From Candidatus Methylomirabilis sp. (GTDB lineage Bacteria > Methylomirabilota > Methylomirabilia > Methylomirabilales > Methylomirabilaceae): a DNA stretch of 37,962 nucleotides. Numbering within the stretch: the first letter of the stretch is position 1; the number at the start of each line of letters is the position of its first letter. The stretch spans positions 1-37,962 of the forward strand of contig JBGQJI010000005.1 in NCBI GenBank assembly GCA_041498975.1, given 5' to 3'. Below, one piece after another: positions 6,328 to 30,651 of this stretch. The notes below the pieces were generated by a model. The model worked only from the letters and a program-made list of their open reading frames with translations, was not told the DNA's origin and did not search any database. The translations under genes were made by a program, and so were the position numbers.

Positions 6328-7230
6328 TCAATCCCTGACCGGGACACCCCGGCGGCGGAGAAAGGCTTTGGCATCCTGAATCGACCATTCACGAAAATGG
6401 AAGATGGAGGCGGCCAGCGCGGCATCGGCCCCCCCCTGCACGAACGCCTCATACAGGTGATCAAGCGTGCCTGCTCCGCCCGACGCGATGACCGGGATCC
6501 CGACCGCATCTGACACGGCCCGCGTCAGGGGGAGATCATAGCCATCCCTCGTGCCATCCCTATCCATGCTCGTCAGCAGGATCTCCCCGGCCCCGAGCGC
6601 TTCCCCCCGCCTCGCCCACTTTACAGCGTCGAGTCCGGTCGGGGTCCGACCGCCATGAGTATATACCTCCCATCGAAGTTCCGAGTTCCGAGTTCCAGGT
6701 TCCAAGTTTGGCTTCGCAGTTCCCGATTCCGGAATCTGGGTTCCGGGTTCTACGCTTGGACCTTGGAATCTGGAACCTGGAACTCTCTCCAACACGGAAC
6801 TTGGAATCTGGAACCTGGAACTGCCATTGATTCGTTTCGCGTCGATTGCGAGCACAATGCATTGACTCCCGAACCGCATGGCGGCCTCCGTAATCAACTC
6901 CGGCCGCTCCACTGCCGCCGTGTTGAGGGAAACCTTGTCGGCGCCCGCCAGAAGAAGGGTCCGGATGTCTTCCACCGTCCGGACCCCGCCTCCGACGGTG
7001 AGGGGGGTAAAGGCCATTTCGGCCGTCCGCTGGACCACCTCGATGAGGATCTGTCGGCGCTCATAGGACGCTGTAATGTCGAGGAAGACTAGTTCGTCGG
7101 CCCCCTGCCGGTCATAGAGGGCCGCCACCTCTGCCGGGTCGCCGGCATCGCGGAGATTCACAAACCGCGTCCCCTTCACGACCCGGCCATCCTTCACGTC
7201 GAGGCAGGGTATGATCCGCTTGGTCAGCAT
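6328..7230 (-). CDS. hisF: Imidazole glycerol phosphate synthase cyclase subunit with an ~50-aa repeat-derived insertion
   Basis: [45 protein letters not shown]. 300 aa versus about 250 typical. Confidence 0.96.
6677..6822. repeat. Palindromic heptamer array inside hisF
   Basis: Left arm AGTTCCG/GGTTCCA-type units; right arm TGGAACC/TGGAATC-type units (reverse complement). Confidence 0.9.
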
Positions 7231-7233
7231 GCC

Positions 7234-7956
7234 CTATCTCGCGGCCGCGATCGCTTCTTGCAGGGAGAACCTGCCCTCGTAGAGGGCCTTGCCCACCAGA
7301 GCTCCGACGATACGAGAGGGGTCCAGCACAGCGAGCTTCTTCACGTCATCAAGCGTCGCGATCCCGCCGGAGGCGATGAGCGGGTGGCGGGTCGCCTGGG
7401 CCATTCGGCGGAGGGCTTCCAGGTTTGGCCCAGCGAGCATCCCGTCCCGCCCGATGTCGGTGTACACGATCGCGGCCAGTGCGAGGTCCGCCGTCCCGGC
7501 CGCCAGCTCGGTCGCCGAGACGCCGGTGTCCGCAGCCCAGCCTCGAACGGCCACCTTCCCATTTCTGGCGTCGATCCCCAGGACGACTCGACCGGGATAG
7601 CGGCGGCTCGCTTCGGCCAAAAACTCTCCGTCCTCGATCGCCGCCGTCCCGAGGACCGCCCGCTCGATCCCGGACTCGAACGCCTGTTCCAAAGCCGCCA
7701 GACTTCGGAGCCCGCCGCCAAACTGGACCGGCACCCTGACCGCCCTGGCCACTTCGGCGACGATCGAAAGGTGTTGTGGCCTGCCGCGGAAGGCCCCGTC
7801 AAGGTCGACCACATGCAGAATCGGCGCCCCCTCCGTCTCCCACCTCCTGGCCATGGCGACCGGATCGGCGGAATAGAAGGTCTGGCGCAAGGGGTCACCC
7901 TGGGCCAACCGAACGACCTGACCCCCTTTCAGGTCGATCGCCGGAATGACCAGCAT
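7234..7956 (-). CDS. hisA: ProFAR isomerase
   Basis: VIPAIDLKGGQVVRL, HVVDLDGA, YTDIGRDGML, IASGG. Confidence 0.96.
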   Translation of the reverse strand: MLVIPAIDLKGGQVVRLAQGDPLRQTFYSADPVAMARRWETEGAPILHVVDLDGAFRGRPQHLSIVAEVARAVRVPVQFGGGLRSLAALEQAFESGIERAVLGTAAIEDGEFLAEASRRYPGRVVLGIDARNGKVAVRGWAADTGVSATELAAGTADLALAAIVYTDIGRDGMLAGPNLEALRRMAQATRHPLIASGGIATLDDVKKLAVLDPSRIVGALVGKALYEGRFSLQEAIAAAR

Positions 7957-8601
7957 CTACGTGAGCGACGCGAAGTTCTTCAAAAGTTGCAGGCCGAGGC
8001 TCTGGCTCTTCTCGGGGTGAAACTGGCAGGCAAAGAGGTTGTCTCGCCAGAGGACTGAGGTGAAGGTCAAACCGTATTCGGTGGTAGCGGCGATCACGCC
8101 TTCATCCTCGGGCTGCACGTAGTACGAGTGCACGAAGTAGAAGAATCCGCCGTCAGGGATGTCCTTGAAAATCGGGGCTTGTCGTTCGATCCGGATTCGG
8201 TTCCACCCCATGTGGGGAATCTTCAGCCTTGCCTTTGTCCCACCCCCATCGCTGAATGATGCGGCTTCCGGGAATCGGACCACGCGGCCCTTGATGATGT
8301 TAAGCCCCTTGTGGTGCCCAAACTCCTCGCTCTCGCTGAACAGGAAGTGAAGCCCCAGGCAAATGCCGAGGATGGGCTTCCCAGCGTCGATCGCCTGGAG
8401 CAGCGGCTCGACGAAGCCGCCATCCTGAAGCTTTGTGATCCCTTCTCGAAAGGCGCCGACGCCCGGCAGGACGATCCCGGAAGCGTCTCGAAGCGCCCGG
8501 GGACCATCCACGATCTTGGCGTCGGCCCCAACGTGCTCGAACCCCTTCTGGACACTCCGGAGGTTCGCGATGCCGGAATCGATGATGGCGATCATGGTCA
8601 C
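7957..8601 (-). CDS. hisH: Imidazole glycerol phosphate synthase glutaminase subunit
   Basis: LPGVGAF, GICLG, PHMGWN, YFVHSY, QFHPEKS. Start may be ATG 8595. Confidence 0.96.
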   Translation of the reverse strand: MTMIAIIDSGIANLRSVQKGFEHVGADAKIVDGPRALRDASGIVLPGVGAFREGITKLQDGGFVEPLLQAIDAGKPILGICLGLHFLFSESEEFGHHKGLNIIKGRVVRFPEAASFSDGGGTKARLKIPHMGWNRIRIERQAPIFKDIPDGGFFYFVHSYYVQPEDEGVIAATTEYGLTFTSVLWRDNLFACQFHPEKSQSLGLQLLKNFASLT

Positions 8602-8609
8602 CTTGTATC

Positions 8610-8714
8610 AGGTTCCATGTTCCGGGTTCCGGGTTCCGGGTTCCGAGTTCCCTTTTGCACTGTCGTGGTCCTGGTTCTCAACCTGGCACCTGGCACCTGG
8701 CACTCGGAACCTGG
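8610..8714. repeat. Palindromic heptamer array between hisB and hisH
   Basis: Six GGGTTCC-type units, a spacer, then five CACCTGG/AACCTGG-type units. Confidence 0.9.
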
Positions 8715-8717
8715 TTG

Positions 8718-9305
8718 CTAGAGACTTCCCTTGGTCGAGGGGATATCGCCGATCCTTGGGTCGATCGCCGTCGCCTGATCGAGGCTCTTGGCCAACGCCT
8801 TGAAGATCGCTTCAACGCAGTGGTGCAGGTTTTCGCCGTAGAGGATCGAAACGTGGAGGTTCACCTTCATCTGCATGGCGAAGGCACGCAGGAACTCCTT
8901 GACCAGAGCGACGTCGAAGTGTCCGATCCGTCCCGTAAGCTGGGGCGCTTGATAGACGAGATAGGGCCGCCCGCTGATGTCGACCACCACCTGGGCCAGC
9001 GCCTCGTCCAGTGGAACGAGGGCCGAGGCGAAGCGACGGATTCCGCGCCTGTCACCCATCGCCTGACCGAACGCCTCGCCGAGCGCAATCCCCACGTCCT
9101 CGACGGTATGGTGAAGATCGACCTGAAGGTCACCCTTGGCCTTGACGTTCAGGTCGAAAAGGCCGTGCTTGGCGAGTTGGGCCAGCATGTGATCCAGGAA
9201 GGGGATCTCGGTTTGTACCTCGTGCCGACCCACTCCATCCAGGTTGAGCTCCACCGCCACATCCGTTTCCGCGGTTTTCCTGTGAACCAACCCCGTCCTG
9301 CTCAT
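8718..9305 (-). CDS. hisB: Imidazoleglycerol-phosphate dehydratase
   Basis: RKTAETD, DLHHTVEDVGI, GENLHHCVEAIFKA, IPSTKG. ATG 9305 overlaps the hisC TAA. Confidence 0.96.
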   Translation of the reverse strand: MSRTGLVHRKTAETDVAVELNLDGVGRHEVQTEIPFLDHMLAQLAKHGLFDLNVKAKGDLQVDLHHTVEDVGIALGEAFGQAMGDRRGIRRFASALVPLDEALAQVVVDISGRPYLVYQAPQLTGRIGHFDVALVKEFLRAFAMQMKVNLHVSILYGENLHHCVEAIFKALAKSLDQATAIDPRIGDIPSTKGSL

Positions 9306-10450
9306 TATCCGATCTCCGTCTTCTTCATTCCACCCCGCACTTCGCACTTCGCACCCCGCACTTCGCGCCCCTCAAACTGTCTCACCACCTGGGTCAATCC
9401 ATCCAGGAACTGCTCGTTCTCCTCTGCCGTGCCGATGGTGACCCGGAGGCAGTCGTTCAGGCCAAGAGCTGACCCCAGATTCCGCACCAGGACGCCCTCC
9501 GCCAGCAATGCTTCAAACACTCGATCGCCCGGAAGCCTGGTCCGGAATAGGACGAAGTTTGCCTCGGAGGGGAAGGTCTCGATCCCGGCCATCGCGGTCA
9601 ATCGATCCATGACGTGCGCCCGCTCCCGGACGATCTCTCGAACATTGGCATCGATCCACTCTCGATGCCGCAGCAGCACCACCGCTGCCGCCTGGGAAAA
9701 GGCATTCACATTGAATGGCAGGCGGACCTTCTCCAGTTCCGCGGCAAGCGAAGGATGGACCACGACGTATCCAACCCGCAGGCCGGCCAACCCCACCTTG
9801 GAGAGCGTGCGGAGGATCACCAGTCGCTCCTGCTCGACCAGGTGCGGCAGCATCGTCCTTCCGGCATAGGCGCCGTAGGCTTCATCGACCACGACCAATC
9901 CTGGGGAGGCCGCCAGGATCTTCAAGATCTCCGCCTCAGAGAAGACGCCACCCGTCGGGTTGTTGGGCGTGGCGAGAAAGACCGCCCTGGGGCGCACCTG
10001 CTCGATCATATCGATCATCCCGGGCAGGTCCGCCTCAAAACCGGGCGCGAGAGGAGCCCCCTCGAAGCGAAGCCCCTGAGCTCTCGCGATCAACTCGTAC
10101 ATCGAGAAGGTCGGGACCGGCGCGAGGACCGTTTCACCGGGCCTCCCGATCGCCAGGAGCAACAGTTGGATCAGCTCATCGGACCCGTTGCCCAGGACGA
10201 GTTGTCCCGGCGTCACCCCATGCTCAGCAGCCAGGACCGATCGGAGACCATCTGCTTTGGGATCTGGGTAGCGATTGACCGCCACCTGCCCCAGAGACTG
10301 GAGCAACTCCTGCCGAAGCCCCTCCGTGAGGGGAAACGGGCTCTCGTTGGCATCCAGCTTCACGAGATCGGGCCGTGGTTCCTCGGCCCGATACGCCGTG
10401 AGCCCCCGCACTTCGGGTTTGATGAGATCGAGAAGGCGGGTCGGCTTCAT
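9305..10450 (-). CDS. hisC: Histidinol-phosphate aminotransferase
   Basis: KLDANESP, NRYPDP, GNGSDELI, PNNPTG, DEAY, RTLSKVGLAGLRVGY. ATG 10450 overlaps the hisD TGA (ATGA). Confidence 0.95.
   Translation of the reverse strand: MKPTRLLDLIKPEVRGLTAYRAEEPRPDLVKLDANESPFPLTEGLRQELLQSLGQVAVNRYPDPKADGLRSVLAAEHGVTPGQLVLGNGSDELIQLLLLAIGRPGETVLAPVPTFSMYELIARAQGLRFEGAPLAPGFEADLPGMIDMIEQVRPRAVFLATPNNPTGGVFSEAEILKILAASPGLVVVDEAYGAYAGRTMLPHLVEQERLVILRTLSKVGLAGLRVGYVVVHPSLAAELEKVRLPFNVNAFSQAAAVVLLRHREWIDANVREIVRERAHVMDRLTAMAGIETFPSEANFVLFRTRLPGDRVFEALLAEGVLVRNLGSALGLNDCLRVTIGTAEENEQFLDGLTQVVRQFEGREVRGAKCEVRGGMKKTEIG
9333..9371. repeat. Heptamer array (CGCACTT/CGCACCC family) in the hisC 3' end
   Basis: CCCGCAC TTCGCAC TTCGCAC CCCGCAC TTCGCGC; encodes EVRGAKCEVRG. 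Confidence 0.85.
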
Positions 10451-11805
10451 GGTACGTGGGGGGTGCGGGGTGCGGGGTGCGGGGTGGGCTCCTCTCGCAC
10501 CTCGCATTTCGGACCGCGGCCCTCGCACCTTATCGCCGCGGCCCTCGCATGGGCCTCAAGACCCTCCAGGCGGGCCAGCTCCACCAGTGCCGGCGCCAGC
10601 GACTCCAACTTCTCCCGGCTGAAGGCGATCAGCGATGGCCAGCGCAGAAAATCATCCACGGAGAGCGGCGAGGCAAAACGCGCCGTCCCGCCGGTAGGCA
10701 AGACATGGCTCGGCCCGGCCAGGTAGTCGCCCAACACCTCCGGGCTTGTGCTGCCCAGGAAGATGGCGCCGGCATGTCTGACCCTCGGCAGAAGCGCCCA
10801 CGGGTCTTTGACCAACAGCTCCAGGTGTTCCGGCGCAATCTCGTTGGCCAATTCAGCCGCCTCGATCAGGTCCCCGACGACGACGGCCGCCCCGAATCCT
10901 TCGAGGGACGCCTCCGCGATGTCCCGCCTCGGCAGCACGGCCACCTGACGTTTCACCTCGTCTGACACCTCCTCAGCCATTCGTTGGGACGGCGTGAGCA
11001 GCACCGCGCTAGAAACCGGATCGTGCTCTGCCTGAGACAGGAGGTCGGCGGCGGCCCAGTCTGCTCTGGCCTCCTCGTCGGCAATGACCAACAGCTCGGT
11101 AGGCCCAGCGATCATATCGATCCCGACCTGCCCGAAGACCAGACGCTTCGCTGCCGCGACGTAGATATTCCCGGGCCCGACGATCTTATCCACCTTCGGG
11201 ATCGAAGCGGTCCCGTACGCCATGGCGGCCACTGCCTGAACACCGCCCACTTTATAGATCGCGCGCACACCGGCGAGGTGAGCGGCAGCCAGAACAGCAG
11301 GTGCTACCCTGCCATCCCGCCGCACCGGCGTGCACATCACGATCTCCTGCACTCCGGCAATCGCGGCGGGGATCGCGCTCATGAGGACCGTCGATGGGTA
11401 GGCCGCGGTGCCGCCCTGGACATAAATTCCCACCCGCTCCAGCGGGCGGCAAAGCTGTCCGACGATCGCCCCGTCCTCCTCTGCAAACCACGAGACGCGG
11501 ACCTGGCGGAGATGGAATGCCCTGATTCGCGACGCCGCCGTCTCAAGCGCCTCAAGGGAAGCAGGCGCCAGCGCAGCATAGGCCTCCGTGATCTCCTCCG
11601 GCATCACCCTCACCGAGGCGGCATCAAGCCGGGCGCCGTCGAACCGCGCCGCCTGTTCGAAGAGGGCTGCGTCCCCACCTGTCCTGACACTTTCCAGGAT
11701 GGCTCGAGCCGACTGCTCAACCTCGGCAGGGATCGTGCCCTGCCGCGCCTTGAGGTGGGCGAGAAAGGCCTGACACTCGCGCGACCCGGCCTTCAGTATC
11801 CTCAT
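10447..11805 (-). CDS. hisD: Histidinol dehydrogenase with a repeat-derived C-terminal tail
   Basis: KIVGPGNIYVAAAK, IDMIAGPTE, SQAEHD, APEHLEL, GDYLAGPSHVLPT, EGLEAHARAA. Confidence 0.95.
   Translation of the reverse strand: MRILKAGSRECQAFLAHLKARQGTIPAEVEQSARAILESVRTGGDAALFEQAARFDGARLDAASVRVMPEEITEAYAALAPASLEALETAASRIRAFHLRQVRVSWFAEEDGAIVGQLCRPLERVGIYVQGGTAAYPSTVLMSAIPAAIAGVQEIVMCTPVRRDGRVAPAVLAAAHLAGVRAIYKVGGVQAVAAMAYGTASIPKVDKIVGPGNIYVAAAKRLVFGQVGIDMIAGPTELLVIADEEARADWAAADLLSQAEHDPVSSAVLLTPSQRMAEEVSDEVKRQVAVLPRRDIAEASLEGFGAAVVVGDLIEAAELANEIAPEHLELLVKDPWALLPRVRHAGAIFLGSTSPEVLGDYLAGPSHVLPTGGTARFASPLSVDDFLRWPSLIAFSREKLESLAPALVELARLEGLEAHARAAAIRCEGRGPKCEVREEPTPHPAPRTPHVP
10455..10530. repeat. 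Palindromic heptamer array (GGGGTGC...GCACCTC family) forming the hisD tail
   Basis: About four GGGGTGC units, spacer GCTCCT, then TCGCACC/TCGCATT-type units. Confidence 0.85.
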
Positions 11806-12467
11806 TCGCGCGCCTCTCCCGGACGCCGCTCGACCTGCTTCCGGATCTGTTCGATCAGTGTCTGAACCCTGAGGTACTTCGTCTTGAGGCTCGCGCGATT
11901 GACGATGAGCCGTGCCGTGGCCCTGGCGATCTCCTCGACCTCCACTAACCCGTTCTCCTTAAGGGTTTGGCCCGTTGCCACTAAGTCCACGATCCGTTCT
12001 GCCAGGCCCACAAGGGGCGCAAGCTCGAGAGAACCGGTCAACTTGATGATCTCCGCCTGGATCCCCTTTCGGCTGAAGAACTGTTCGGCGAGGTTGGGAT
12101 ATTTGGTGGCAACCCTCAAGTACGACCAGGAACGAGGGTCGTCCTTCTCGCGCAGTTCAGCCGGCTCCGCGACGACGAGCCGGCAGGCCCCGAAGCCGAG
12201 GTCCAATGGTTCGTAGATATCCCGATGCTGCTCGAGAAGCTGGTCCTTCCCTACGATTCCCATGTCGGCAGCTCCGTGCTCAACGTAGGTGGGGATATCG
12301 GAGGGCCTCAGCGTAAGGAACCGGAGCTGTCGCTCCTGGTCCTCGCAGATCAACCGGCGCGAATCAGAGAATCCTTTCACGCAGGAAATGCCCATGCCCT
12401 CGAATAGTTGAAGGGCATCGATCAAGAGCCGACCCTTCGGGAGCGCAATGGCGATTAACTCATTCAT
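11802..12467 (-). CDS. hisG: ATP phosphoribosyltransferase, short form
   Basis: IALPKGRL, DIPTYVEHGAADMGIVGKD, RVATKYP, GSLELAP, IVDLVATGQTLKENGL; no C-terminal regulatory domain. The alternative start at 12479 lies within the repeat. Confidence 0.95.
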   Translation of the reverse strand: MNELIAIALPKGRLLIDALQLFEGMGISCVKGFSDSRRLICEDQERQLRFLTLRPSDIPTYVEHGAADMGIVGKDQLLEQHRDIYEPLDLGFGACRLVVAEPAELREKDDPRSWSYLRVATKYPNLAEQFFSRKGIQAEIIKLTGSLELAPLVGLAERIVDLVATGQTLKENGLVEVEEIARATARLIVNRASLKTKYLRVQTLIEQIRKQVERRPGEARE

Positions 12468-12470
12468 TAA

Positions 12471-12600
12471 AGGTTCCATGCGCCAGGTTCCGGGTTCCGG
12501 GTTCCATGTTCCAAGTCCAGGGTTCAGCGTTCAAGGTTCAAGGTTCGAAGTTGCAAAATCAGCCCCTCAACATTGAACCTCGAACATCGAACTTTGAACA
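12471..12600. repeat. Palindromic heptamer array between murA and hisG
   Basis: GGGTTCC/AGGTTCA-type units followed by TTGAACC/TCGAACA/TCGAACT-type units. Confidence 0.9.
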
Positions 12601-12606
12601 GTCCGC

Positions 12607-13863
12607 TTATTCGGGGACTCGCTCGATGTCGGCACCGAGACCGAGCAGCTTGCGCTCAAGCGACTCGTATCCCCGATCAAGATGGTAGACCCTCGAGAGT
12701 GTCGTCACCCCATTCGCAGCCAACCCCGCCAGAACCAGCGAAGCGCTCGCGCGGAGGTCGGTGGCCATCACAGGTGCGCCCGACATCCTAGGGACCCCTT
12801 GGACGAAGGCCGCGTTGCCAAGCACCTTGATATCAGCCCCCATCCTCAACAGCTCATTCACATGCATGAACCGGTTCTCAAAAACCGTCTCGGTGATCAC
12901 GCTGGTGCCTTCTGCGGTGCACAGGAGGGCCATCATCTGCGCCTGCATATCGGTTGCGAAGCCGGGATAAGGGTGTGTCCTGATGTTGATGCCACGCACC
13001 GACCGGTCTGCCCAGACTCGTATCCTGTGATCTCCCCACTCTACGCCCACGCCAGCTTCTTGCAGTGTGTCGGCAAAGGCTTCCAGGTGCTGCGGAAGGC
13101 AGCGATTGACCGTCACATCGCCGCCGGTGATGGCGGCGGCGACCATGAAGGTCCCAGTTTCGATTCTGTCCGGGATCACCTCGTGGTCCGCCCCATGCAG
13201 CGATTCGACACCCTCGATACAGATCGTGGGGGTTCCGGCGCCCTTGACTCTCGCACCCATGCGATTCAGGAGAGCGGCAAGATCAGACACCTCGGGCTCG
13301 CATGCTGCGTTCTCCAGTACGGTCGCGCCGTCTGCCAGGGTGGCGGCCATCATCAGGTTCTCGGTGCCGGTGACGGTCTGGCCATCGAACGCAATCCGGG
13401 CGCCCTTCAGGCGTGACGCCTTCGCCTCCACGTATCCGGCATCCAGGTTGATCTTCGCGCCCATCTTCTCCAGACTCGCGAGATGTAAATTGATCGGCCG
13501 CGGGCCGATGGCGCAGCCCCCCGGCAATGAGACCCGTGCCCGGCCGAAGCGGGTGAGCAGAGGCCCCAGAACCAGCACCGATGCCCGCATCGTCTTGACC
13601 AGCCCATAGGGAGCCTCCAATTCGCCCACCCGAGCTGCGCACAGGGTCAACGTCTTCTGGCCAAATCCTTCGACCCACACACCCAGATGGCTCAGCAGGG
13701 CAGTGATAGTTCTCACGTCGCCCAGTCTCGGGACGCGAAAGAGCCGGATCGGCTCCCCCGTCAGCAACGAGGCGGCCATGGCGGGCAAGGCGGCGTTCTT
13801 TGCGCCACTTGCATCCACCTGACCCCTAAGGGGAATCCCGCCCCTGATGATCAGCTTATCCAT
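12607..13863 (-). CDS. murA: UDP-N-acetylglucosamine 1-carboxyvinyltransferase
   Basis: [32 protein letters not shown] (catalytic Cys present), DRIETGT, TDLRASA, HLDRGYE. Confidence 0.97.
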
Positions 13864-14914
13864 GTGGCCTCGGTCTCCGTTGCGCCAGGATGACTCGGTC
13901 ACGTCCTGAGAGATCCTGTTTCACCCCGACCGGTCCGAAGATTTCGGTCTCGTCGATCAGTCTCATTACAGAGGGCGCCTGACCCTCGCCGATCTCGACG
14001 GCCAACCACCCATTTGCCCGAAGCCGCGCCGGCACCTCCTCGATAATTCGCCGATGAAAGTGCAGCCCGTCCTCGCCGCCGTCAAGGGCTTGATGGGGCT
14101 CGTAAGCGAGAACCTCCGGAGGAAGCCTGGAGAGCTGACCCGAAGGGATGTACGGTGGATTTGAGACGATCAGGTCAAACCCGTGTTGGATCGCACGAAG
14201 CGGCTCAAACAGATCCCCTTGCACGAAGCGAACCTTGCCCGCGAGTCCCAAAGCCTTCGCGTTCCTGCTGGCGATCCGCACGGCATCCGCAGAGCTGTCG
14301 AGCGCATAGAGGCGCGCGTGAGGGATCTCTCTGGCCAACGCGAGCGCGATGGCGCCACAGCCGGTGCCAAGGTCTAGAATCCTAAGTTCCGGGTTTCGGG
14401 TTTCGGGTTTACACCCTGGAGCCTGCCATTCGGAACTTGGAACCCCTATCGACTCGAAACTCGAAACTCGAAACTCGAAACGTATCTTCTCAAGGACTGC
14501 TTCGACCAGCGTTTCGGTTTCCGGCCTCGGGATCAGGACGCCACGGCCCACCGAAAGGGAGAGGGACCAGAACTCCTTCACCCCTAGGATGTACGCGATC
14601 GGCTCTCTTGCCTCGCGACGGCACAGCATCGCCTCCAGGAGGTCAGATGTCCCGGATGCAATCGCTCGCTCCGGTTCCACGATGAACCGCCACCGCCGGA
14701 CCCCCGAGGCGGCCTCCATGAGGCAGGCAGCGTCGAGTAACGCGCTGTCAACATCGGCACGTGCCAGGCGCTCAACTGCGCGACGATACGTGAACACGCG
14801 TGGGGTGCGGGGCGCAGGGTGCGGGGTGCGCTCCTTTCGCACCTCGCGCTTCACGCTTCGCACCATGTACTCCATGTCTTGCACTTGCCCCGCCGGCATT
14901 GAACCCGTCTTCAC
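13856..14914 (-). CDS. prmC: Release factor glutamine methyltransferase with two repeat-derived insertions
   Basis: [48 protein letters not shown]; follows prfA. Start uncertain. Confidence 0.93.
14385..14481. repeat. Palindromic heptamer array inside prmC
   Basis: Three GGGTTTC-type units ... four CTCGAAA units; translated as FEFRVSSFE...KPETRNPE. Confidence 0.9.
14797..14863. repeat. Palindromic heptamer array (GGGGTGC family) in the prmC 5' end
   Basis: About four GGGGTGC-type units, spacer GCTCCT, then TCGCACC/TCGCGCT/TCACGCT/TCGCACC; translated as [22 protein letters not shown]. Confidence 0.85.
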
Positions 14915-14927
14915 GTCACGGCTCTTC

Positions 14928-16013: not shown

Positions 16014-16037
16014 CCTCCCTGATGGAGCGGCCTCTCG

Positions 16038-16313: not shown

Positions 16314-16325
16314 GACTCTCCCTCC

Positions 16326-16518: not shown

Positions 16519-16553
16519 AACCTACCGATTTTTCAGTGTCTTAGACGACTCAT

Positions 16554-16583
16554 ATTATACGTCTAAAGGCTGAGACCTCTCAA
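16554..16583 (-). promoter_or_regulatory. Putative sigma70 promoter of the rpmE-prfA-prmC-murA-his cluster
   Basis: TTGAGA (16583-16578), 18 bp, TATAAT (16559-16554). Confidence 0.65.
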
Positions 16584-16584
16584 T

Positions 16585-16615: not shown

Positions 16616-16642
16616 GGTTGGTATCGGTTGTGGGAAAATCGC

Positions 16643-21871: not shown

Positions 21872-21875
21872 AGCT

Positions 21876-22634: not shown

Positions 22635-23635
22635 CAGCGCGAGACAGGGGGAGATACGGCAGGCCTGCGAAACATGAGACCCACCCATCCCGAACCCCGT
22701 CGCACCCGTTCCAGGGCCATGCCGCATTGCCGGAACTTGGCCGCTACCACCCGCTCCTGATCCTTCAGGATCCCCGAGGTGATCAAGCGGCCCATGGGGC
22801 GCAGTGACCGGGCGAGACGGGGTGCCAGGCTCATGAGCCCTTCAGCCGTCAGGTTGGCAAGAACCACGTCAAAGGTCCGCCGCCCAGCCGTATCCAAGGA
22901 GCCCTGTTTCACGACAATCCGGCCGTCTCCCCCGTTCCGGCTGATGTTCTCCAAGGCGACCTCACACGCGACCCTGTCGATATCCAAGGCGAGGACTGGC
23001 CCCGCGCCACACTTGAGCGCGGCGATCGCCAGTAGGCCGGAGCCGGTCCCGAGGTCCAGCACCGATGGACGGCGGTTCGGAGTTCGGAGTTCATAGTTCG
23101 TAGTTTTCACATTCTGGCCCGATAACTCCGGCCTCCGAACTCTGAACCCTGAACTATGAACTCTGAGCTGCTCCATGGCAGCTTCCAGCAACTCAAGACA
23201 CATCTTGGTCGTGGGGTGCTGCCCGGTGCCGAAGGCCATCCCCGGGTCAAGCTCCACCACGATGTCGTCCTCCTTCACAGGAGTGCGCTCCCACGACGGT
23301 CTGATCACCAGGCGCCTCCCAATCCGCAGCGGTCGAAAGAACTCCTTCCATCGGACCCCCCACCCCGGATCATGAACGCGCCGGGAAGTGAGTGTTGCAG
23401 GGCCGACGACGACGCCCTCTAATCGGAGAGACACCAGATAACTTCTCACACGCGCGAGAGAAGTTCCAATGGTAGGATCGTCTGGAAGGTGTGTGAGGAG
23501 GCGATGCGATGCCCCCTCCAAAACAGCGACCGCGGTCGCACCCGATTCGAAAAGCAGCGTGGAGACGAGATCGGCGGCAGGGGGGGAGACCGTGATGATG
23601 ACCTCGACATAGGGGCATCCGGCAGATCCGGACAC
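22634..23635 (-). CDS. prmA: Ribosomal protein L11 methyltransferase with a repeat-derived insertion
   Basis: WKEFFRP, IRPSWE, LDPGMAFGTGQHPTT, VLDLGTGSGLLAI, LANL, ITSGIL. Start uncertain (GTG 23635). Confidence 0.93.
   Translation of the reverse strand: MSGSAGCPYVEVIITVSPPAADLVSTLLFESGATAVAVLEGASHRLLTHLPDDPTIGTSLARVRSYLVSLRLEGVVVGPATLTSRRVHDPGWGVRWKEFFRPLRIGRRLVIRPSWERTPVKEDDIVVELDPGMAFGTGQHPTTKMCLELLEAAMEQLRVHSSGFRVRRPELSGQNVKTTNYELRTPNRRPSVLDLGTGSGLLAIAALKCGAGPVLALDIDRVACEVALENISRNGGDGRIVVKQGSLDTAGRRTFDVVLANLTAEGLMSLAPRLARSLRPMGRLITSGILKDQERVVAAKFRQCGMALERVRRGSGWVGLMFRRPAVSPPVSR
23074..23169. repeat. Palindromic heptamer array inside prmA
   Basis: GGTTCGG AGTTCGG AGTTCAT AGTTCGT ... CCGAACT CTGAACC CTGAACT ATGAACT CTGAGCT. 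Confidence 0.9.
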
Positions 23636-23684
23636 GACACTGCGCGGACGCCTCGCCGAGTCTTTCCGAAGAGGAGCGGCAAGG

Positions 23685-24776
23685 TCAGCCGAAGAGGCTT
23701 TTGACCTTCTCAAAGAAGCTCTTGACCAGAGGGCTCCCGTCCCCGTTCTCAAGCTCAGCATAGGCCTCGAGCAGCTCGCGCTGCTTCACGCTGAGCCGGG
23801 TCGGCACCTCGACCACAACCCTCACCACGAGATCGCCACGGCCACGGCCACGCAGGCTCGGCACCCCCTTCCCGCGCAAGCGGAATTCCGAGCCGGACTG
23901 GGTCCCGGGCGGGATCTTGAGCATCATCATCCCGGACAAACTCGGGACCTCGAGCTCGGCACCCAGGGCCGCCTGAACGAAGCTGACGGGGACGTCGCAG
24001 GTGAGATCGTCGCCGCTGCGTGAGAAGAGCGGGTGCTCCTGAACCGTGATGACGACGTAGAGATCACCGCGATCTCCCCAACGGAGACCGGCCTCTCCCT
24101 CGCCTGTCAGCTTCAAGCGTGTTCCGGTCTCCACGCCCGCCGGGATTTTCACCGTAAGCGCTCGATCGATCCTCGACCGGCCCGTCCCCCGACAGTCCCG
24201 GCACAGATGCTCGATAACACGTCCCTCGCCTCGGCAGGCCGAACAGGTCTGGCTGATCGTCAGAAACCCTTGGGAGTATCGGACCTGACCGCTTCCCCGG
24301 CATGAACGGCAAGTGGTGGGAGAGGTCCCCGGCTTGGCGCCACTCCCCTTGCACGTGCCGCAGGGCTCCAGCCGTGGGATGGTGATCTCCTTCTCCGCCC
24401 CGAGGACGGCTTCCTCAAGGCTGATCTCGAGATTGTAGCGGAGATCGGCGCCCCGGGAGGTAGACCGGCGAGGAGCGCCTCCAAAGAACCCCTCGAAGAG
24501 ATCTTCGAAGACAGAGCCGAATCCCACATCTCCGAATCCCCCGAGACCCGCCCCTTCCCCGACAACACCGAACCGGTCATAGGCCGCCCGCTTTTCGTGA
24601 TTGCTCAGGATTTCGTAGGCCTCAGTGGCCTCTTTGAAGCGCTCTTCTGACGCCTTATCGCCAGGGTTCTTATCCGGGTGATATTTATGGGCCAACCGGC
24701 GATAGGCCCGCTTGATCTCTTCGGGGGCGGCCTCTCGGTCCACCCCAAGCACCTGGTAGTAGTCTCGCTTGCTCAT
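23685..24776 (-). CDS. dnaJ: Chaperone DnaJ
   Basis: J-domain with HPD, G/F-rich region and four CxxCxGxG repeats. ATG overlaps the grpE TGA. Confidence 0.97.
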
Positions 24777-25411
24777 CACTCAACGGTTTCGCGTTCCTGG
24801 TTTCGGGTTTCGGGTTCATTCTCCTCAGAACCCGGAACTCGAAACTCAGAACTCGAAACTCTCGTTTTCGATACCTTGACCATCGATGGCCGGAGCAGAC
24901 GGCCCTCCAGCAGGTAGCCTCTCTGGACCTCTTCAACAACGATGCTGTCCCGGCCATCGGCAGACTCCACCTGAGCCACAGCCTGATGGAGGTTCGGATC
25001 GAACTCATGCCCCAGCGCCCCGATCACCTTGACCCCAGCCTTCTCCAGGATTGTGTGAAAGAGCCGAAGAATGATATCGAGCCCCTCAGCGACACCCTGT
25101 GCGTCCGTCCCGGACTTGGCTGTGGCGATCGCACGCTCCAGGTTGTCCAGGACGGGAAAGAATTCCAAGAGCAGCGCCTCATTCGCGAACTTCATGAACT
25201 CGCTTCGCTCGCGCGCCATTCGTTTCTTGTAGTTCTCGAATTCGGCCTGGAGGCGAAGCAGCCGGTCGTTCAGGGCCTCCACCTCGGCGATCCTCTCCTT
25301 CAGGTCGGTCTGCAATCGCGCAATCGTCGCCTCCGGTTCGGTCCCCGCGGCAACTGGAACTCCCTGGACCTCCTCCGTCGTCGTCTTGGCTTCTTCGCTT
25401 CCTTGCTGCAT
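24776..25411 (-). CDS. grpE: Nucleotide exchange factor GrpE with a repeat-derived C-terminal tail
   Basis: [54 protein letters not shown] before ATG 25411. Confidence 0.96.
24785..24870. repeat. Palindromic heptamer array forming the grpE tail
   Basis: GGGTTTC/TGGTTTC-type units followed by GAAACTC/GGAACTC-type units; translated as [26 protein letters not shown]. Confidence 0.88.
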
Positions 25412-25497
25412 GATTCGGTTGGCTCCACCAGGTTGATGAACACCCATGAGTCATCGACCCGCCATGATGGCCGGAACTACGTTATCAGGATCACGGG

Positions 25498-26541
25498 TTA
25501 GGCATCCACTTCCGTAAGGATTTTGCTCACGAGCCTGGCCGTGAAATCAACCAGGGCTACCATCCGGTCGTAGGCGATCCTTTTCGGGCCCACGATCCCG
25601 AGAACGCCGAGAACATGATCTCCACTCCTGTATGGCGAGGCGATCAAACTGAGCTCGCGCATCTCCTTAATCGCGCTCTCACGGCCGATGATAATCCTTA
25701 ATCCTTCCCGGGTCAGGCATTGATCGAGGATCTTGATGAGCTTCGACTTCTCCTCGAAGGCCTCGAAGATCTCCTTCATCTTCTTGACATCGGCAAACTC
25801 AGGCTGGTGGGCGAAGTTGGCCGCCCCGCCGATATACACCTGCCCCTCCTCTCCCTCCAGCGTCTTGTTGCTGAGTTCCAGGGCCCGGCGCATCAATTGA
25901 TTGAACTCATCACGCTCCTCGGCCATCCGCGCGACGATGCGATCCCTGACCTCCCGGAGAGTCACCCCGCCAAGCACGGCGTTGAGATAGCGGGATATCC
26001 GATCCAGCTCCGGCTGATCGATCACCTCATCGATCGCAATCACCTTCTGCTGAACGAGGCCCGAATCGGCCACCAGGACCACCAGGATCCGCTCCCGATT
26101 GAGGTGAACGAAGTCGATGCGCCGCCAGGTGTTCTGAGCGAGCTTTGGCGCTAGAACCACGGCGGTGTACCGGGAGAGATCGGAGAGAATTCGGCTGATC
26201 TCCTGCATCAGCTCTTCGGGTTGACCCGAGCCAGGTCGGATTCCCTGCTCGATCCGGCTTTCCTCTGTCTTTGACAACCTTGGCCGCTGCATGAGGCTAT
26301 CGACGTAGAAGCGGTATCCCAGGTCGGTCGGCACCCTGCCGGCCGAAGTGTGTGGCTGGAAGAGGTAGCCGATCTCTTCCAGGTCGGCCATGACATTGCG
26401 GATGGTCGCGGCGCTGAGGTGCTCCAGATATCGTCTGGCGATGATCCGGGAGCCCACGGGCTCCCCGGAGGTGATGTAGTCATGAATGACCGCCTTGAGA
26501 ATCTGACGCTGTCTCAAGTTGAGTTCACGGGTTAGCATCAT
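25498..26541 (-). CDS. hrcA: Heat-inducible transcription repressor
   Basis: EPVGSR, SAATIRNVMADLE, PHTSAGRVPTDLGYRFYVD, LGIVGPKRIAY. The second ATG (26538) fits the AAGGAG RBS better. Confidence 0.97.
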   Translation of the reverse strand: MMLTRELNLRQRQILKAVIHDYITSGEPVGSRIIARRYLEHLSAATIRNVMADLEEIGYLFQPHTSAGRVPTDLGYRFYVDSLMQRPRLSKTEESRIEQGIRPGSGQPEELMQEISRILSDLSRYTAVVLAPKLAQNTWRRIDFVHLNRERILVVLVADSGLVQQKVIAIDEVIDQPELDRISRYLNAVLGGVTLREVRDRIVARMAEERDEFNQLMRRALELSNKTLEGEEGQVYIGGAANFAHQPEFADVKKMKEIFEAFEEKSKLIKILDQCLTREGLRIIIGRESAIKEMRELSLIASPYRSGDHVLGVLGIVGPKRIAYDRMVALVDFTARLVSKILTEVDA

Positions 26542-26896: not shown

Positions 26897-28111
26897 TTAC
26901 AGAAGCTGGGCGATCAGCTCATTCGCCACCAGGAGCCCCCGCTCCGTGATCTGTAGCCGCCCCTCTTTCAGGCCAAGGAATCCGGCATCGAGCAGCCACA
27001 TGACTCGATCAGATTCGGCGAGGTCCTCGATGTCCAGCAACTCCCTGAACGTCTGCAGGTCCAGTCCCTCCCGCAACCGAAGCCCGAGCATCAGCCGCTC
27101 GGACCGGAGCAGCTCCTTGGAGAGCGTTTCGCGGGCGGCCACCGCGGTGCCACGCTCCCCGATCGCGCGCAGGTAGCTGGCGGGCAGCAGCTCGTTAGAG
27201 AACCGTTCGCCGCCGAGGAATGAGTGAGCCCCGGCCCCCAGGCCGATGTACTCCTGGTGTCCCCAATACACCAGATTATGGCGGCAGCGGAACCCGGGGC
27301 GCGCGAAATTCGAGATCTCGTACTGGTCGAAGCCGGCGTCGGTCAGCCTGTCCAGGGTCATCTCGTACATCGCCGCCTCCGTCGCCTCATCGGGCAGTCC
27401 GAGAGAGCCTGCGCGATGCTCCTGGTGGAGTCGAGTCCCCTCCTCGAGGATCAGGCCGTAGGCAGAGATATGTTCCGGTCTCAGGTGGATGGCCCATCCA
27501 AGCGACTCGGACCAGTCATCGAGGGTCTGACCGGGCAGGCCGAACATCAAATCCAGGTTGATGTTTGTGAAGCCAGCGTCCCGCGCCAACCAAAAGGCCC
27601 GTTCGGCCTCCTGCACGCCATGCGCCCGACCGATCCGCTGCAGGAGTGTGTCCTGCGCGGCCTGTGCGCCGAAACTCAAACGGTTGATGCCGCCTTCCCT
27701 CATGGCGCGGAGCTTCGGAGGATCTACTGTCCCGGGATTTGCTTCAAGGGATATCTCCACCCCCTCCTCGACCGCGAAGGCCGCCCGGCAGCGATCGACG
27801 ATACCGACAATCTGCGACCCCTCCAGAATCGACGGGGTTCCGCCGCCGAAGAAGATGGAGCACAGCCGACGACCCCGGACCGCTTCCACGGCGGCGCGCA
27901 GTTCGATCTCCCGCGCCAGCCCGTGCAGATATTGCTCTGCCTGGGTTGCATCGAACTGATAGGTGTTGAAGTCACAGTAATGGCAGCGCGAGGCGCAATA
28001 GGGAATGTGGATGTATAACCCCAGAGGTTTCGGGTTTCGGGTTTCGGGTTTCGGGTCAAGGGAAGAGCCCGAACTCAAAACTCGAAACTCCAAACTCGAA
28101 ACGGTGTTCAT
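26897..28111 (-). CDS. hemW: Radical SAM heme chaperone (HemN-like) with a repeat-derived N-terminus
   Basis: LYIHIPYCASRCHYCDF, FFGGGTPS, EANP, YEISNFA, HNLVYW; located between lepA/lepB and hrcA. Confidence 0.9.
   Translation of the reverse strand: MNTVSSLEFRVLSSGSSLDPKPETRNPKPLGLYIHIPYCASRCHYCDFNTYQFDATQAEQYLHGLAREIELRAAVEAVRGRRLCSIFFGGGTPSILEGSQIVGIVDRCRAAFAVEEGVEISLEANPGTVDPPKLRAMREGGINRLSFGAQAAQDTLLQRIGRAHGVQEAERAFWLARDAGFTNINLDLMFGLPGQTLDDWSESLGWAIHLRPEHISAYGLILEEGTRLHQEHRAGSLGLPDEATEAAMYEMTLDRLTDAGFDQYEISNFARPGFRCRHNLVYWGHQEYIGLGAGAHSFLGGERFSNELLPASYLRAIGERGTAVAARETLSKELLRSERLMLGLRLREGLDLQTFRELLDIEDLAESDRVMWLLDAGFLGLKEGRLQITERGLLVANELIAQLL
28026..28101. repeat. Palindromic heptamer array in the hemW 5' end
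   Basis: Four GGTTTCG units, spacer, then CGAACTC/AAAACTC/GAAACTC/CAAACTC/GAAAC. Confidence 0.92.
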
Positions 28112-28782
28112 CGGATTAGCATCCCGATCCGCCCCCAGCGAGGTCGGAAGCGGTCCCGATCCCAGGACCAGTAAATGATGAAGGCTTTCCCTTTGATCTT
28201 CTTCATGTCAAGAAAGCCCCAAAACCTGCTGTCCATGCTGTAGTCCCGGTTGTCGCCCATCATGAAGAGGTTGCCTGGCGGAACCACCACGGGCCCGAAA
28301 CTGTCCCGCGGGGAGAGCGGACTTTCCTGGATCGTGCGATCCATGTGGACCGCATACGGCTCCCGAAGCGGCTTGTCATTGACGTACACCTGCTTTCCCC
28401 GGACTTCCACTCTTTCACCCGGCAGGGCGATGACCCGCTTGATGAAGTCCCTCCCCTCATCTTGTGGGAACTTGAACACGATGATGTCGCCCCGCTGCGG
28501 GTTGCGCAGACCAGGCATGCGCCAGTCGAGGAACGGGATCTCCGCGCCATACAGGAACTTGTTGACCAGGATGTGATCCCCAATCAACAAGGTTTGCTGC
28601 ATCGAGCCGGACGGGATTTTGAACGCCTGGACCACAAAGGTCCTGATCACCAGGGCCAAGACAATGGCAATGACGAAGGCCTCTGCATACTGACGAATGA
28701 CCGACTTCTCCGGAACCGGCCTATCCGACACGACCGACTCCCGGCGTTCCTCCGTTTGAGGATTCATGATCTCTCTTGTCAT
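28108..28782 (-). CDS. lepB: Signal peptidase I
   Basis: TM segment, [36 protein letters not shown]. Confidence 0.96.
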
Positions 28783-30587
28783 GGGCTTTTCACTTTCAGG
28801 ACCGCCATGAAGGCTTCCTGTGGAATTTCGACCCGCCCCACCTGTTTCATCCTTCGTTTCCCCTCTTTCTGCCGTTCAAGCAGCTTCCGTTTCCGGGTGA
28901 TATCCCCCCCGTAGCACTTGGCCGTCACGTTCTTGCGCAATGGCCGCACGCTTTCCCTGGCTATGACCTTGCCGCCCAGGGCGGCCTGGATCACCACCTC
29001 GAAGAGTTGCCGGGGGATCAACTCGCGCATCCGCTCCACCAGCGCCCGGCCTCTGAGGTACGCTTGGTCTTTCGGGACGATGGAGGAGAGCGCGTCAACC
29101 GGCTCGTCGTTCACCAGGATGTCCAATTTCGCCAGGCGGCCTTCGCGATACTCGAGGAATTCGTAGTCCATGGAGGCATAGCCACGGGTCGCCGACTTGA
29201 GCCGGTCATAGAAGTCCAGGACGATCTCGTTCAGAGGAAGGTCGTACGTGATAAGGACTCGCCCCCCTTCAAGATACTCCACGTCTCGCTGGACCCCCCG
29301 CTTCTACTGACACAGTCCGAAGATCGGGCCAACATACTCCCCGGGCGCCATGATGGAGGCCTTGATGTAGGGTTCCTCTATCCGCAGAAGCTGCTGGGGG
29401 GAGGGAAGGTGACTGGGGTTCTGCACCTCAACGACCGACCCATCGCTTTTGGTGACACGGTACACCACGGTCGGGGCGGTGGTGATGAGGGTCAGGCCGA
29501 ACTCCCGCTCCAACCGCTCCTGGATGATCTCCATGTGAAGCAGGCCGAGGAAGCCGCAGCGGAAACCGAAGCCGAGGGCCAGCGAGGTCTCCGGTTCGAA
29601 CGTGAAGGAAGAATCATTGAGGCGGAGTTTCTCCAACGCCTCCTTGAACTCCAGATACTGCTCGCTCTCGATCGGGTACAGCCCGGCGAACACCATCGGC
29701 CGGATCTCCTTGAAACCGGGGAATGGTCTGGTTGTGGGTCTGTCTTCGGCGGTGATGGTGTCGCCCACCCTGGTTTCACGCACGTCTTTGATCCCGGCAA
29801 TGATGTACCCGACCTCTCCGGCCGACAGGAGGTCCGCCGGCCGCATCTGGGGTGCGAAGACCCCCACCTGGGCCACCTCAAAGGCAGCCCCGCTGGACAT
29901 CAGGAGGATCCGCATCCCTGGGACTACCTGTCCTTCGTAGAGCCGCACGTAGACGATCACGCCCTGATACGAATCGAACAGGGAGTCGAAGATCAGAGCC
30001 TTCAAAGGCGACTCCGGGGAGCCTTGGGGGGGCGGAACCCGTTTGATCACCGCCTCCAGGACCTCCTCGATACCGATCCCCTGTTTGGCACTGCACAGGA
30101 TCGCCTCCGAGGGATCGATGACCAGGATCTCCTCAATCTGTCTCTTCACCCGGGGGATATCCGCATTCGGCAGATCGATCTTGTTGATCACGGGGATGAC
30201 CGCCAGCTCGTGCTCCATCGCGAGGTGGACATTGGCGAGCGTCTGGGCCTCCACCCCCTGGACGGCATCGATCACGAGCAATGCGCCCTCGCAGGCGGAG
30301 AGGCTCCGCGAGACCTCGTAACTGAAGTCCACGTGGCCTGGTGTGTCGATCAGGTTCAGGATATATTCCTGGCCACCCTGCCGCCTATAGCGAAGGCGAA
30401 TGGCCTTGGCCTTGATGGTGATGCCTCGCTCCCGCTCGAGATCCATCTGGTCCAGGACCTGGGCCTCCATCTCGCGGGGCGGCAACGCATCGGTCGCCTC
30501 CAGGATCCGATCGGCCAGAGTTGACTTGCCATGATCGATGTGCGCAATGATGGAGAAATTTCGAATCCTGTTCAATTCGGTCGCCAT
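28779..30587 (-). pseudogene. lepA: Elongation factor 4 (LepA) interrupted by a single in-frame TAG
   Basis: [20 protein letters not shown] and DTPGHVDF in the 5' [17 protein letters not shown] in the 3' ORF. Both are in the same frame, with TAG at 29306-29304 in L-C-Q-*-K-R-G-V-Q. Gene identity is certain; pseudogene status is not. Confidence 0.85.
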
Positions 30588-30591
30588 GAGA

Positions 30592-30651
30592 TCAGTGCTC
30601 AGCTCTCAGCCGTCAGCGTTCAGCACACATGCTGATTGTTGACCGCTGGGC
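30592..30651. repeat. Palindromic heptamer array (TCAGC family) upstream of lepA
   Basis: TCAGTGC TCAGCTC TCAGCCG TCAGCGT TCAGCAC acat GCTGATT GTTGACC GCTGGGC. Confidence 0.8.

Follow-up and report, generated by a model that had tools for sequence, protein, structure and literature searches.

Heptamer-armed palindromic repeats in and between housekeeping genes of a Candidatus Methylomirabilis genome: a probable class of copied elements

The stretch of DNA analysed here, called the window, comprises 37,962 nucleotides and is contig C5 of a Candidatus Methylomirabilis bin (2.68 Mb in 241 contigs, 62% G+C, 84.9% complete). In this study, we found that eleven arrays of tandem 7-nt repeats, which lie within or between housekeeping genes of this window, probably belong to a class of copied palindromic elements with heptamer arms. 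Such elements appear to persist at their sites while their sequence turns over, to be tolerated by their hosts and probably to be translated, and a full-length form in sister genomes carries a PF05635 gene. We put the probability of this reading at about 0.6.

According to this reading, the window arrays would be cargo-less small palindromic repeats with arms of about four to five tandem heptamers, in which, whichever strand is read, G/T-rich units make up the 5' arm and A/C-rich units the 3' arm. Copying would carry the elements from site to site. A colonised site would stay filled over genus- to order-level divergence while its content is quickly replaced or homogenised, so that period, arm length, polarity and hairpin potential would persist and the heptamer sequence would be lost. 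Most elements occupy tiny gaps between co-directional genes, with about one in ten lying within a gene. Heptamer arrays run through all three reading frames, and as many units have no stop codon, frame-keeping copies could survive as disordered peptide in surface loops, inter-domain linkers and termini. The full-length relatives in sister genomes have the PF05635 gene between the two arms.

Array architecture and in-frame inserts

Period-7 arrays were called with Tandem Repeats Finder (TRF), and inverted pairs among them by a script. Genome-wide, 339 rows of period 7 were obtained compared with 95 of period 6 and 77 of period 8. The period-7 rows with at least three copies numbered 272, against 4 in one Markov-simulated genome and 7 in one triplet-shuffled genome, which excludes chance; the arrays thus abound beyond the window. 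After merging, the set comprised 265 arrays, 112 of them in 56 inverted pairs and 153 single. In the usual design, about four G/T-rich heptamers are separated from about four roughly complementary A/C-rich ones by a spacer that ranges from a few bases to some tens. The median arm is 31 nt, and the copy number has its mode at four (67, 95, 125, 20 and 14 rows at 2, 3, 4, 5 and 6 copies, respectively). The G/T-rich arm stands first in 52 of the 56 pairs, with identical polarity on either strand, and the four exceptions all have TCAGC-type units of balanced composition. The units are diverse, with 63 canonical heptamers among the 272 arrays and spacers that vary from array to array. The three array families proposed in the initial annotation, which was made from the letters of the window alone, grade into these many units. 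Frequent units such as AACCTGG, AACTCTG and AAACTCG are free of G3 tracts. The commonest unit family, GAGGTGC/GCACCTC (28 arrays), resembles the Shine-Dalgarno and anti-Shine-Dalgarno sequences. A single telomerase-like template had been suggested by the arm polarity and is disfavoured by the dozens of units in one genome.

The paired elements fold with energies of -17 to -70 kcal/mol. In 24 of the 33 elements with co-oriented flanks, the sense strand folded more weakly (mean -42.9 kcal/mol) than the antisense strand (mean -46.7 kcal/mol; Wilcoxon p = 0.012), because the differences between the arms mostly give G.U pairs on the antisense strand and A.C mismatches on the mRNA strand. We infer that this asymmetry reflects selection against very stable mRNA stems. 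Strand-biased cytosine deamination was also considered as its cause and was rejected, since it predicts the opposite direction. The weaker mRNA-strand hairpin is likewise seen in most orthologous elements; the pairs at 10456-10530 and 8611-8714 are examples from the window, and the prfA-prmC element of the congeneric genome G008 folds at -7.7 kcal/mol in the sense and -40.0 kcal/mol in the antisense direction.

The true internal in-frame inserts of the window are those of HisF, PrmC and PrmA, all encoded on the minus strand. The hisF gene (6328-7230) holds a 150-nt composite element at 6676-6825 (TRF arms 6676-6708 and 6764-6821), which encodes residues 137-186. HisF residues 1-136 and 187-299 align to residues 1-136 and 138-250 of the structure 4evz, giving a clean insert of 50 residues, and the Pfam His_biosynth match is split around it (5-133 and about 190-290). 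The AlphaFold2 (AF2) model made with 26 orthologues has a confident barrel, in which the insert (136-183) has a pLDDT of about 30, that is, below 50, and no secondary structure. It is placed between the two strands of the hairpin that follows the catalytic AIDAK segment and is predicted to be disordered. In prmC (13856-14914), the palindrome (GGTTTCG)n ... (CTCGAAA)n at 14386-14481 (TRF 14386-14410 and 14452-14481) encodes residues ~145-176 and separates the N-terminal domain from the methyltransferase fold; residues 44-144 and 177-318 align to 8-106 and 111-248 of 1t43. In prmA (22634-23761), the palindrome (GTTCGGA)n ... (CTCTGAA)n at 23075-23166 (TRF 23075-23105 and 23133-23166) encodes residues ~198-232 and directly precedes the S-adenosylmethionine-binding strand, and residues 141-197 and 233-366 align to 2-59 and 63-195 of 3grz.

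All 26 of the 26 HisF orthologues are open through the site. In the eight genomes of the genus, the hisF inserts measure 150, 150, 150, 87, 99, 78, 75 and 21 nt, all multiples of three, and the lengths of the prmC inserts share one common residue modulo 3. These frame-keeping lengths are our main argument that the inserts are probably translated, in disordered loops, linkers and termini. It had been proposed from the window that the arrays add peptide segments to core enzymes and that eight of them lie inside intact open reading frames (ORFs). The clean insertions relative to solved structures agree with the first proposal, which is narrowed in that only three of the eleven arrays are strictly internal and in that translation is deduced from frame conservation. 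The second is roughly right: three arrays are internal (HisF, PrmC, PrmA), four lie at termini (HisD, HisC, GrpE, HemW), and the array at 14797 is included only in the longest possible prmC ORF.

A frame classifier was trained on the Pfam-validated genes of the window and placed 80 of 80 test windows correctly. It was applied to the flanks of 209 elements genome-wide, of which 11 were at contig edges and 198 could be classified. Twenty rows (5 pairs and 15 singles, about 18 distinct elements) were in frame and internal. A further 95 lay between co-directional genes, comprising 58 plain cases and 37 whose flanks were in one frame with a stop between them. The other rows fell between convergent genes (17), between divergent genes (12) or beside at least one flank that looked non-coding (54). 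Fifteen further host ORFs were submitted to Pfam; 14 had domains, and the element was within or between domains in 13. The further hosts are a P-type ATPase, a Mur ligase, TsaD, HolB, a radical-SAM/DUF2344 protein, a HemD-HemE open frame, an aldehyde:ferredoxin oxidoreductase (AOR), QueA, a histidine kinase, a staphylococcal-type nuclease, DnaE and two TPR proteins. Ordinary coding repeats from outside the class may account for some of the short single arrays (units CCGCTGC, CTGGACC, ATGGGAT and CGCCCCC). Similar peptides are encoded again and again, with strings rich in S, F, V, G and R (e.g., VRGARCEV) from the G/U-rich arm and strings rich in P, T, N and K (e.g., PRTPHPA) from the A/C-rich arm. 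In the HemD-HemE open frame (669 aa; G000:C28:19422-21431, L119), an array at residues 310-320 lies between HemD (HEM4, 51-293) and HemE (URO-D, 331-665), and reading through the element may have fused the two genes.

Site histories, copying and the PF05635-bearing form

HisF was compared in 25 relatives of the genus and order. Six of them (L014, L016, L019, L020, L024 and L025) carry only 1-4 residues at the insert point, and the remaining relatives have 7-50 extra, array-derived residues. Most other bacteria have 1-6 residues at this point, and some Nitrospirota have an unrelated conserved insert. The latter is a non-repeat insert of 27-34 aa in the loop of L037, L043, L092, L028, L054 and L067 (Nitrospirota, Nitrospina, Thermodesulfovibrionales), with the pattern HDPDFKPPL.WA.DP.YK.LFLS or ..PPEWL..; in L031 a heptad-like proline-rich tail comes after the insert.

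Seven sites of the his-prmC region were compared across the eight genomes of the genus. The prmC site is filled in all eight, with eight different units (GGTTTCG, GGTTCCG, GAGTGCT, GAGTGTT, GGGTTTT, GCGTTGA, GGTGTTG and GGGGATT). At the hisF site, the genomes carry arrays of the GGTTCC type or of the units GGGGTGT, GGGTTTC or GGGGGTT, or else a remnant of 21 nt, and the site between the murA-like gene and hisG is filled in seven of the eight genomes. The array in the hisD tail occurs only in our genome and its two closest relatives (G014 and G016), with 10-15 nt at this place in the five others. The hisB/hisH junction of three relatives is a plain GTGA overlap with no element. Arrays are found at five of the seven compared sites in G008, a complete single-contig genome of 2,752,854 bp. 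Orthologous HisF and PrmC sites thus hold different units in different species of the genus. This turnover supports the initial annotation's view of one dispersed class or mechanism in which period and hairpin are kept and the sequence is not, and empty sites are found both at hisB/hisH and in HisF.

The dispersal itself is best seen in the hisF element. It is a composite of two G/T-rich arms followed by two A/C-rich arms, with the non-repeat landmarks GGTTGGAGARAGTTCC, CCAAGTGYAGAAC and GGAACTGCGAAGCCRAAC. Compared with our copy, the hisF copy of G014 is colinear and identical at 118 of 150 positions (79%), and the hisF copy of G016 also at 118 of 150 (79%). A copy at the prmC site of G014 shares 119 of 150 positions (79%), and one at the hisB-hisH site of G016, in the opposite orientation, shares 93 of 125 (74%). 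The composite family thus counts five copies, spread over three genomes, three gene sites and both orientations, with identities of 74-91%. One defined sequence at three sites and in both orientations indicates that the elements are copied. At the prmC site, the composite has taken the place of the units present in the other genomes.

Small four-helix-bundle genes had been named as possible partners of the arrays, and genes of PF05635 (23S_rRNA_IVP or S23p, the intervening-sequence protein of 23S rRNA, an Avd-like four-helix bundle) do lie between inverted heptamer arrays in relatives. Four of five near-complete relatives have one to seven copies of PF05635. In four relatives of the genus, 11 of 12 such genes are flanked on each side by period-7 arrays no more than about 100 bp away, with the gene on either strand. 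The flanks are usually G/T-rich upstream and A/C-rich downstream, as in (GGGTATA)5.6, gene, (CCCCAAA)4.4 and in (CGAGTTT)4.9, gene, (ACCCGAA)4.3. Phylum-wide, PF05635 was matched in 32 of 121 sampled genomes, and it is concentrated by family in this order (10/14, 10/12, 6/6, 2/2 and 1/1; 3/73 in the largest other family). At 28 phylum-wide loci, of which four are also in the 12-gene genus set, arrays were present on both sides in 16, on one side in 7 and on neither in 5, with a background of 0.39 arrays per kb in the outer flanks. An unpublished genome (G026) enters such tallies only, including the phylum-wide one, and supports no claim.

One orthologous site exists in both forms. In our genome, C48:10806-10922 consists of (AGGGTAT)4.7, a 58-nt spacer and TAGACCCTATACCC, and it lies between a stop codon and the Shine-Dalgarno sequence and ATG of the next gene. 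In G005, of the same genus, a 657-nt PF05635 element lies between the orthologous flanks. Both flanks of the PF05635 loci in G025 and G056, which belong to another family, map around the C48 junction by tblastx, and one flank of that in G128 maps beside it. We suggest that PF05635 elements may be the source or helper of the cargo-less arrays. PF05635 resembles Avd, the accessory protein of diversity-generating retroelements, according to the portion of the source available to us (PMC10053308). At one locus (G018:C28:5886-6994, L138), a reverse-transcriptase gene adjoins the PF05635 gene, like the reverse transcriptase and Avd pair of such retroelements, with period-7 arrays on both sides. PF05635 domains in long open frames (564, 322 and 264 aa) were considered as in-frame cargo and look like stop-to-stop artefacts beside the upstream gene. 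Neither intervening sequences nor period-7 arrays were found in the 23S rRNA genes of G008, G010, G012 and G006, which are continuous and about 3027 nt long.

Alternative explanations and known systems

Several points weigh against the reading of the arrays as copied elements. Target-site duplication was not visible when empty and filled alleles of the hisB/hisH and hisD/hisC junctions were compared, which are only two junctions with diverged flanks. The hisD/hisC array begins exactly at a pre-existing Shine-Dalgarno-like AGGAGGTGCG of the empty alleles, which read AGGAGG(T/C)G before the hisC ATG (window 10452-10531 region), and this start fits local slippage seeding better than insertion. 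The initial annotation had seen no mobilising gene in the window, and we confirmed this; the whole genome has no match to PF05635, RVT_1 (reverse transcriptase) or Y1_Tnp either, at a completeness of 85% and with contigs that break at arrays. The window copies are therefore cargo-less. The complete relative G008 has arrays and no PF05635 gene, so the cargo gene is not needed for persistence. No candidate gene tracks the arrays perfectly in the complete relatives: all five have RVT_1, G008 lacks PF05635, and Y1_Tnp is found in G008, G006 and G012 and absent from G010, which is 99% complete and has arrays. Moreover, many orthologous elements are poor hairpins. Of 46, only 14 reach z < -3 when the sense strand is folded and only 21 when the antisense strand is, and hairpin potential is thus common and not universal. 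The likeness between arrays of one unit is partly forced by the repeats themselves. The contigs of the RNA run X23 are only 50-241 nt long and none spans an array, so they are silent on translation and excision.

The strongest competitor is a purely local origin, in which heptanucleotide repeats arise by polymerase slippage, the second arm arises by fold-back or template-switch synthesis, and no mobile element is involved. The likeness between loci would then come from a shared mutational mechanism and from conversion between similar arrays. The wealth of units, the change of unit by species at one site, the start of the hisD/hisC array at a pre-existing Shine-Dalgarno-like sequence, the lack of a visible target duplication and the lack of a consistent mobilising gene all agree with it, and heptamer excess has been attributed to polymerase slippage in the accessible part of one report (PMC4679880). 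This explanation would not lead us to expect the 150-nt composite, whose non-repeat landmarks recur at hisF, prmC and hisB-hisH in both orientations, nor PF05635 genes inside the same architecture, with one orthologous site alternating between cargo and cargo-less forms. Simple slippage also does not predict the preference for about four units or the arm polarity. We therefore regard a local origin as a possible but distinctly less probable account. It is quite improbable that the inserts are adaptive loops selected for the function of the host enzymes and merely encoded by repeats. Sites that are filled across the genus or order with frames always kept would suit such loops, but species share period and arm design at a site and not the peptide sequence, the HisF insert is predicted to be disordered, six relatives have only 1-4 residues in its place, and the class is mostly intergenic.

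That the hairpins are cut out of the RNA, perhaps by RNase III in the manner of rRNA intervening sequences, and are never translated appears slightly more improbable still. Stems of -30 to -70 kcal/mol would suit RNase III, and the architecture is common with PF05635 elements, whose namesakes leave 23S rRNA. However, the open frame kept in all HisF orthologues and the constant length modulo 3 at hisF and prmC (8/8) would be needless if the inserts were excised, and the weaker sense hairpins are as expected if mRNA stems are selected against. To our knowledge, bacteria do not re-ligate mRNA after cuts of the RNase III type. An assembly artefact of the metagenome bin has next to no probability, even though the bin is in 241 contigs, Logan contigs end at the hisF array (6708 and 6833) and read depth rises in array-holding bins. 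The PrmA array is spanned gap-free by Logan contigs of three runs (X1, X2 and X5), and those of X1 and X2 have one end within or shortly ahead of the hisB-hisH array and extend over the hisC array. The hisF element is backed by relatives and not by reads, and independent relatives, including the complete one-contig genome, hold arrays at orthologous sites with the frame kept. Taken together, the evidence favours the copied palindromic elements over these four alternatives. In window 6300-26299, the contigs of public sediment-metagenome graphs also end at arrays, and the summed depth is several-fold up in the array-holding bins. The heptamer elements are a practical cause of fragmented NC10 bins.

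In their behaviour, the elements resemble the Rickettsia palindromic elements (RPE), which Ogata et al. in 2000 are said to have described as small dispersed palindromes between and in frame within housekeeping genes. Both are dispersed small palindromes without an internal transposase that occur intergenically and in frame, in what seem to be tolerated surface segments. The 150-nt composite behaves as an RPE family with copies at three gene sites, and the host fold is kept around the inserts, with HisF, PrmA and PrmC aligning on both sides and the AF2 barrel intact. RPE families differ in having a conserved consensus of ~100-150 bp, in contrast to the 63 unit types, variable spacers and fast replacement found here. 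They also belong to another phylum, the PF05635 cargo form is a feature of the present class, and the likening is by behaviour and not by sequence comparison. In view of the different phylum, we do not count the elements among the RPE.

The intervening sequences of 23S rRNA are excised from it by RNase III. They share with the elements of the relatives a four-helix-bundle gene between long-stem inverted repeats, and with the class in general an insertion at a tolerant surface position of an essential product. The window elements, however, are gene-free, their hosts are protein genes and operon junctions, and excision without re-ligation would destroy the message. Short non-autonomous hairpins dispersed in intergenic operon DNA are also known as repetitive extragenic palindromes (REP), as REPIN with their RAYT genes, and as miniature inverted-repeat transposable elements (MITE). 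Neither REP nor MITE has a tandem heptamer substructure, no Y1_Tnp gene was found in two genomes with arrays (our own, 85% complete, and G010), unlike what REPIN/RAYT would imply, and no target duplication was seen here at two junctions.

In architecture, the arrays resemble the Xanthomonas and cyanobacterial repeats. The short tandemly repeated repetitive (STRR) heptamers of cyanobacteria and the RPE had both been named as precedents in the initial annotation, the former for heptamer repeats and the latter for in-frame palindromic insertions. In the part of their article accessible to us, Rehm et al. (2015) reported GGGAATC arrays of Xanthomonas with a four-unit preference and 70-75 convergent inverted pairs near stops and starts (PMC4692102). 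These arrays were under-represented in coding DNA and were read as G-quadruplexes, and GGGGA(C/T)T was reported from Nostoc in the same part (PMC4692102). MacGregor (2015) described TAACTGA repeats and, as far as that text was available, cited a general excess of heptamers (PMC4679880). As far as these sources go, the Xanthomonas, Nostoc and STRR repeats are similarly tandem heptamers of about four units with a G-rich run at the 5' side on both strands, mostly between co-oriented genes, and the units GGGGATT, GGGGTGT and GGGGGTT occur in the relatives studied here. By the same partial comparison, the present class differs in that many units have no G-runs (GAGTTCC, GCGTTGA), about 10% are in frame in genes, and there is a link to PF05635. 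We found no account of these elements in Methylomirabilota and no link between PF05635 and heptamers in a literature search that left out subscription journals and supplements.

Among the long simple repeats of many bacteria, those with a heptanucleotide unit are the most over-represented, for reasons as unexplained as the PF05635 proteins are. The window and its relatives put the two in one architecture. The repeats enter essential enzymes in frame, stay across the genus while their sequence turns over, and are copied between sites. This offers a testable system for how selfish or mutational DNA creates disordered protein segments, for the role of PF05635 and for the 7-nt period. Methylomirabilis enrichment cultures exist. 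The practical consequences of the elements are broken short-read assemblies, longer ORFs, apparently fused genes, as in the HemD-HemE open frame, and displaced annotated starts and stops.

More speculatively, the heptamer palindromes could be the non-autonomous form of a widespread undescribed mobile class whose full-length form carries the Avd-like PF05635 gene, a proposal that we consider more doubtful than probable. If true, the class would unite heptanucleotide repeats (STRR and Xanthomonas GGGAATC), rRNA intervening sequences and RPE-like in-frame insertions, and would be a source of new disordered loops in the essential proteins of several phyla. The fixed period of 7 nt, the number of about four units in each arm and the polarity with the GT-rich arm at the 5' side, a head-to-head telomere-fusion layout, would then be footprints of one copying mechanism, which might be Avd-assisted reverse transcription or 3'-end extension at breaks.

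Remaining arrays of the window and minor observations

All eleven arrays of the initial annotation were recovered, ten by TRF and the eleventh, at 30592, by a pattern search. The palindromic design that it described for nearly all of them applies to most: eight are scripted inverted pairs, and the array at 14802 has a visible partner, but that at 9336 is a single arm and that at 30592 has a rudimentary partner only. In the interval of the arrays, almost all genes are on the minus strand, and their order by Pfam is hisF-A-H-B-C-D-G, a murA-like gene, prmC and prfA, then prmA, dnaJ, grpE, hrcA, a hemW-like radical-SAM gene, lepB and lepA.

Three arrays are intergenic. The hisB-hisH palindrome, (GGTTCCG)n, spacer, (ACCTGGC)n, at 8605-8716 (TRF 8611-8651 and 8681-8714) lies between the hisB stop at 8718 and the hisH start at 8601. 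The palindrome between the murA-like gene and hisG occupies 12471-12600 (TRF 12471-12546 and 12569-12600), with the murA-like stop at 12607. The array at 30592-30640, upstream of the lepA start at 30587, consists of five degenerate TCAGNNN units with a rudimentary GCTGA partner and is below the TRF score. Its pattern of five phased TCAG units had one match in the window and none in 100 shuffles, and four other TCAGC-type pairs genome-wide are oriented like it. The palindrome (GGGGTGC)n / (CGCACCT-like)n at 14797-14870 (TRF 14802-14830) lies between the prfA stop (14928) and the conserved prmC start; it is either intergenic or, ahead of the first conserved residues, a 5' extension of prmC.

The terminal arrays are likewise in minus-strand genes. 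The palindrome (GGGGTGC)n / (CTCGCAC)n at 10452-10530 (TRF 10456-10486 and 10494-10530) forms the last ~26 codons of hisD; the Pfam Histidinol_dh domain covers 23-426 of the 452-aa ORF, and the ATGA overlap of the hisD stop and hisC start is retained despite the array. The single A/C-rich arm at 9333-9371 (TRF 9336-9366; plus-strand units CGCACTT/CGCACCC) contributes to the C-terminal tail of HisC and has an overlap with the start of hisB. The HisC ORF has 407 aa with a stop at 9305, and its Pfam aminotransferase domain ends at residue 377. The palindrome (GGTTTCG)n ... (AACTCGA)n at 24785-24861 (TRF 24785-24816 and 24836-24861) forms the C-terminal tail of GrpE (24776-25447), beside the dnaJ start. 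The GrpE domain ends at residue 194 of 223, and the frame classifier has the frame of the upstream gene reading through the element. The palindrome (GGTTTCG)4.4 ... (AACTCGA)4.4 at 28026-28102 (TRF 28026-28056 and 28072-28102) comes right after the hemW-like ATG (28111), which overlaps the lepB stop, and the Pfam Radical_SAM domain starts from residue 33. On reading the sequence, no in-frame ATG, GTG or TTG was found between this array and the conserved LYIHIP motif, and the array is probably an N-terminal extension of the HemW-like protein, covering its first ~28 codons.

A single in-frame stop at window 29304-29306 (minus strand), after which the frame continues, splits lepA into ORFs of 427 aa and 167 aa; a nonsense mutation, strain variation, an error and read-through are all possible explanations. 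Other repeats share the junctions of the heptamer arrays. Another dispersed element of ~160-200 nt, containing ...GGTGGCGACGCGTCGTCGAC...GTACAGGGACGTACGGCGAGAT..., occurs at junctions that hold heptamer arrays in our genome (hisB-hisH and hisC/hisB), twice in G010 (L112) and once in G006 (L113). A small palindrome with a C6 run, a T/A-rich loop and a G6 run (CCCCCCTTTGATAAAGGGGGG-like), flanked by CGCACC-type units, is present at the hisC/hisB and prfA-prmC junctions (L110 of G018 and L111 of G007).

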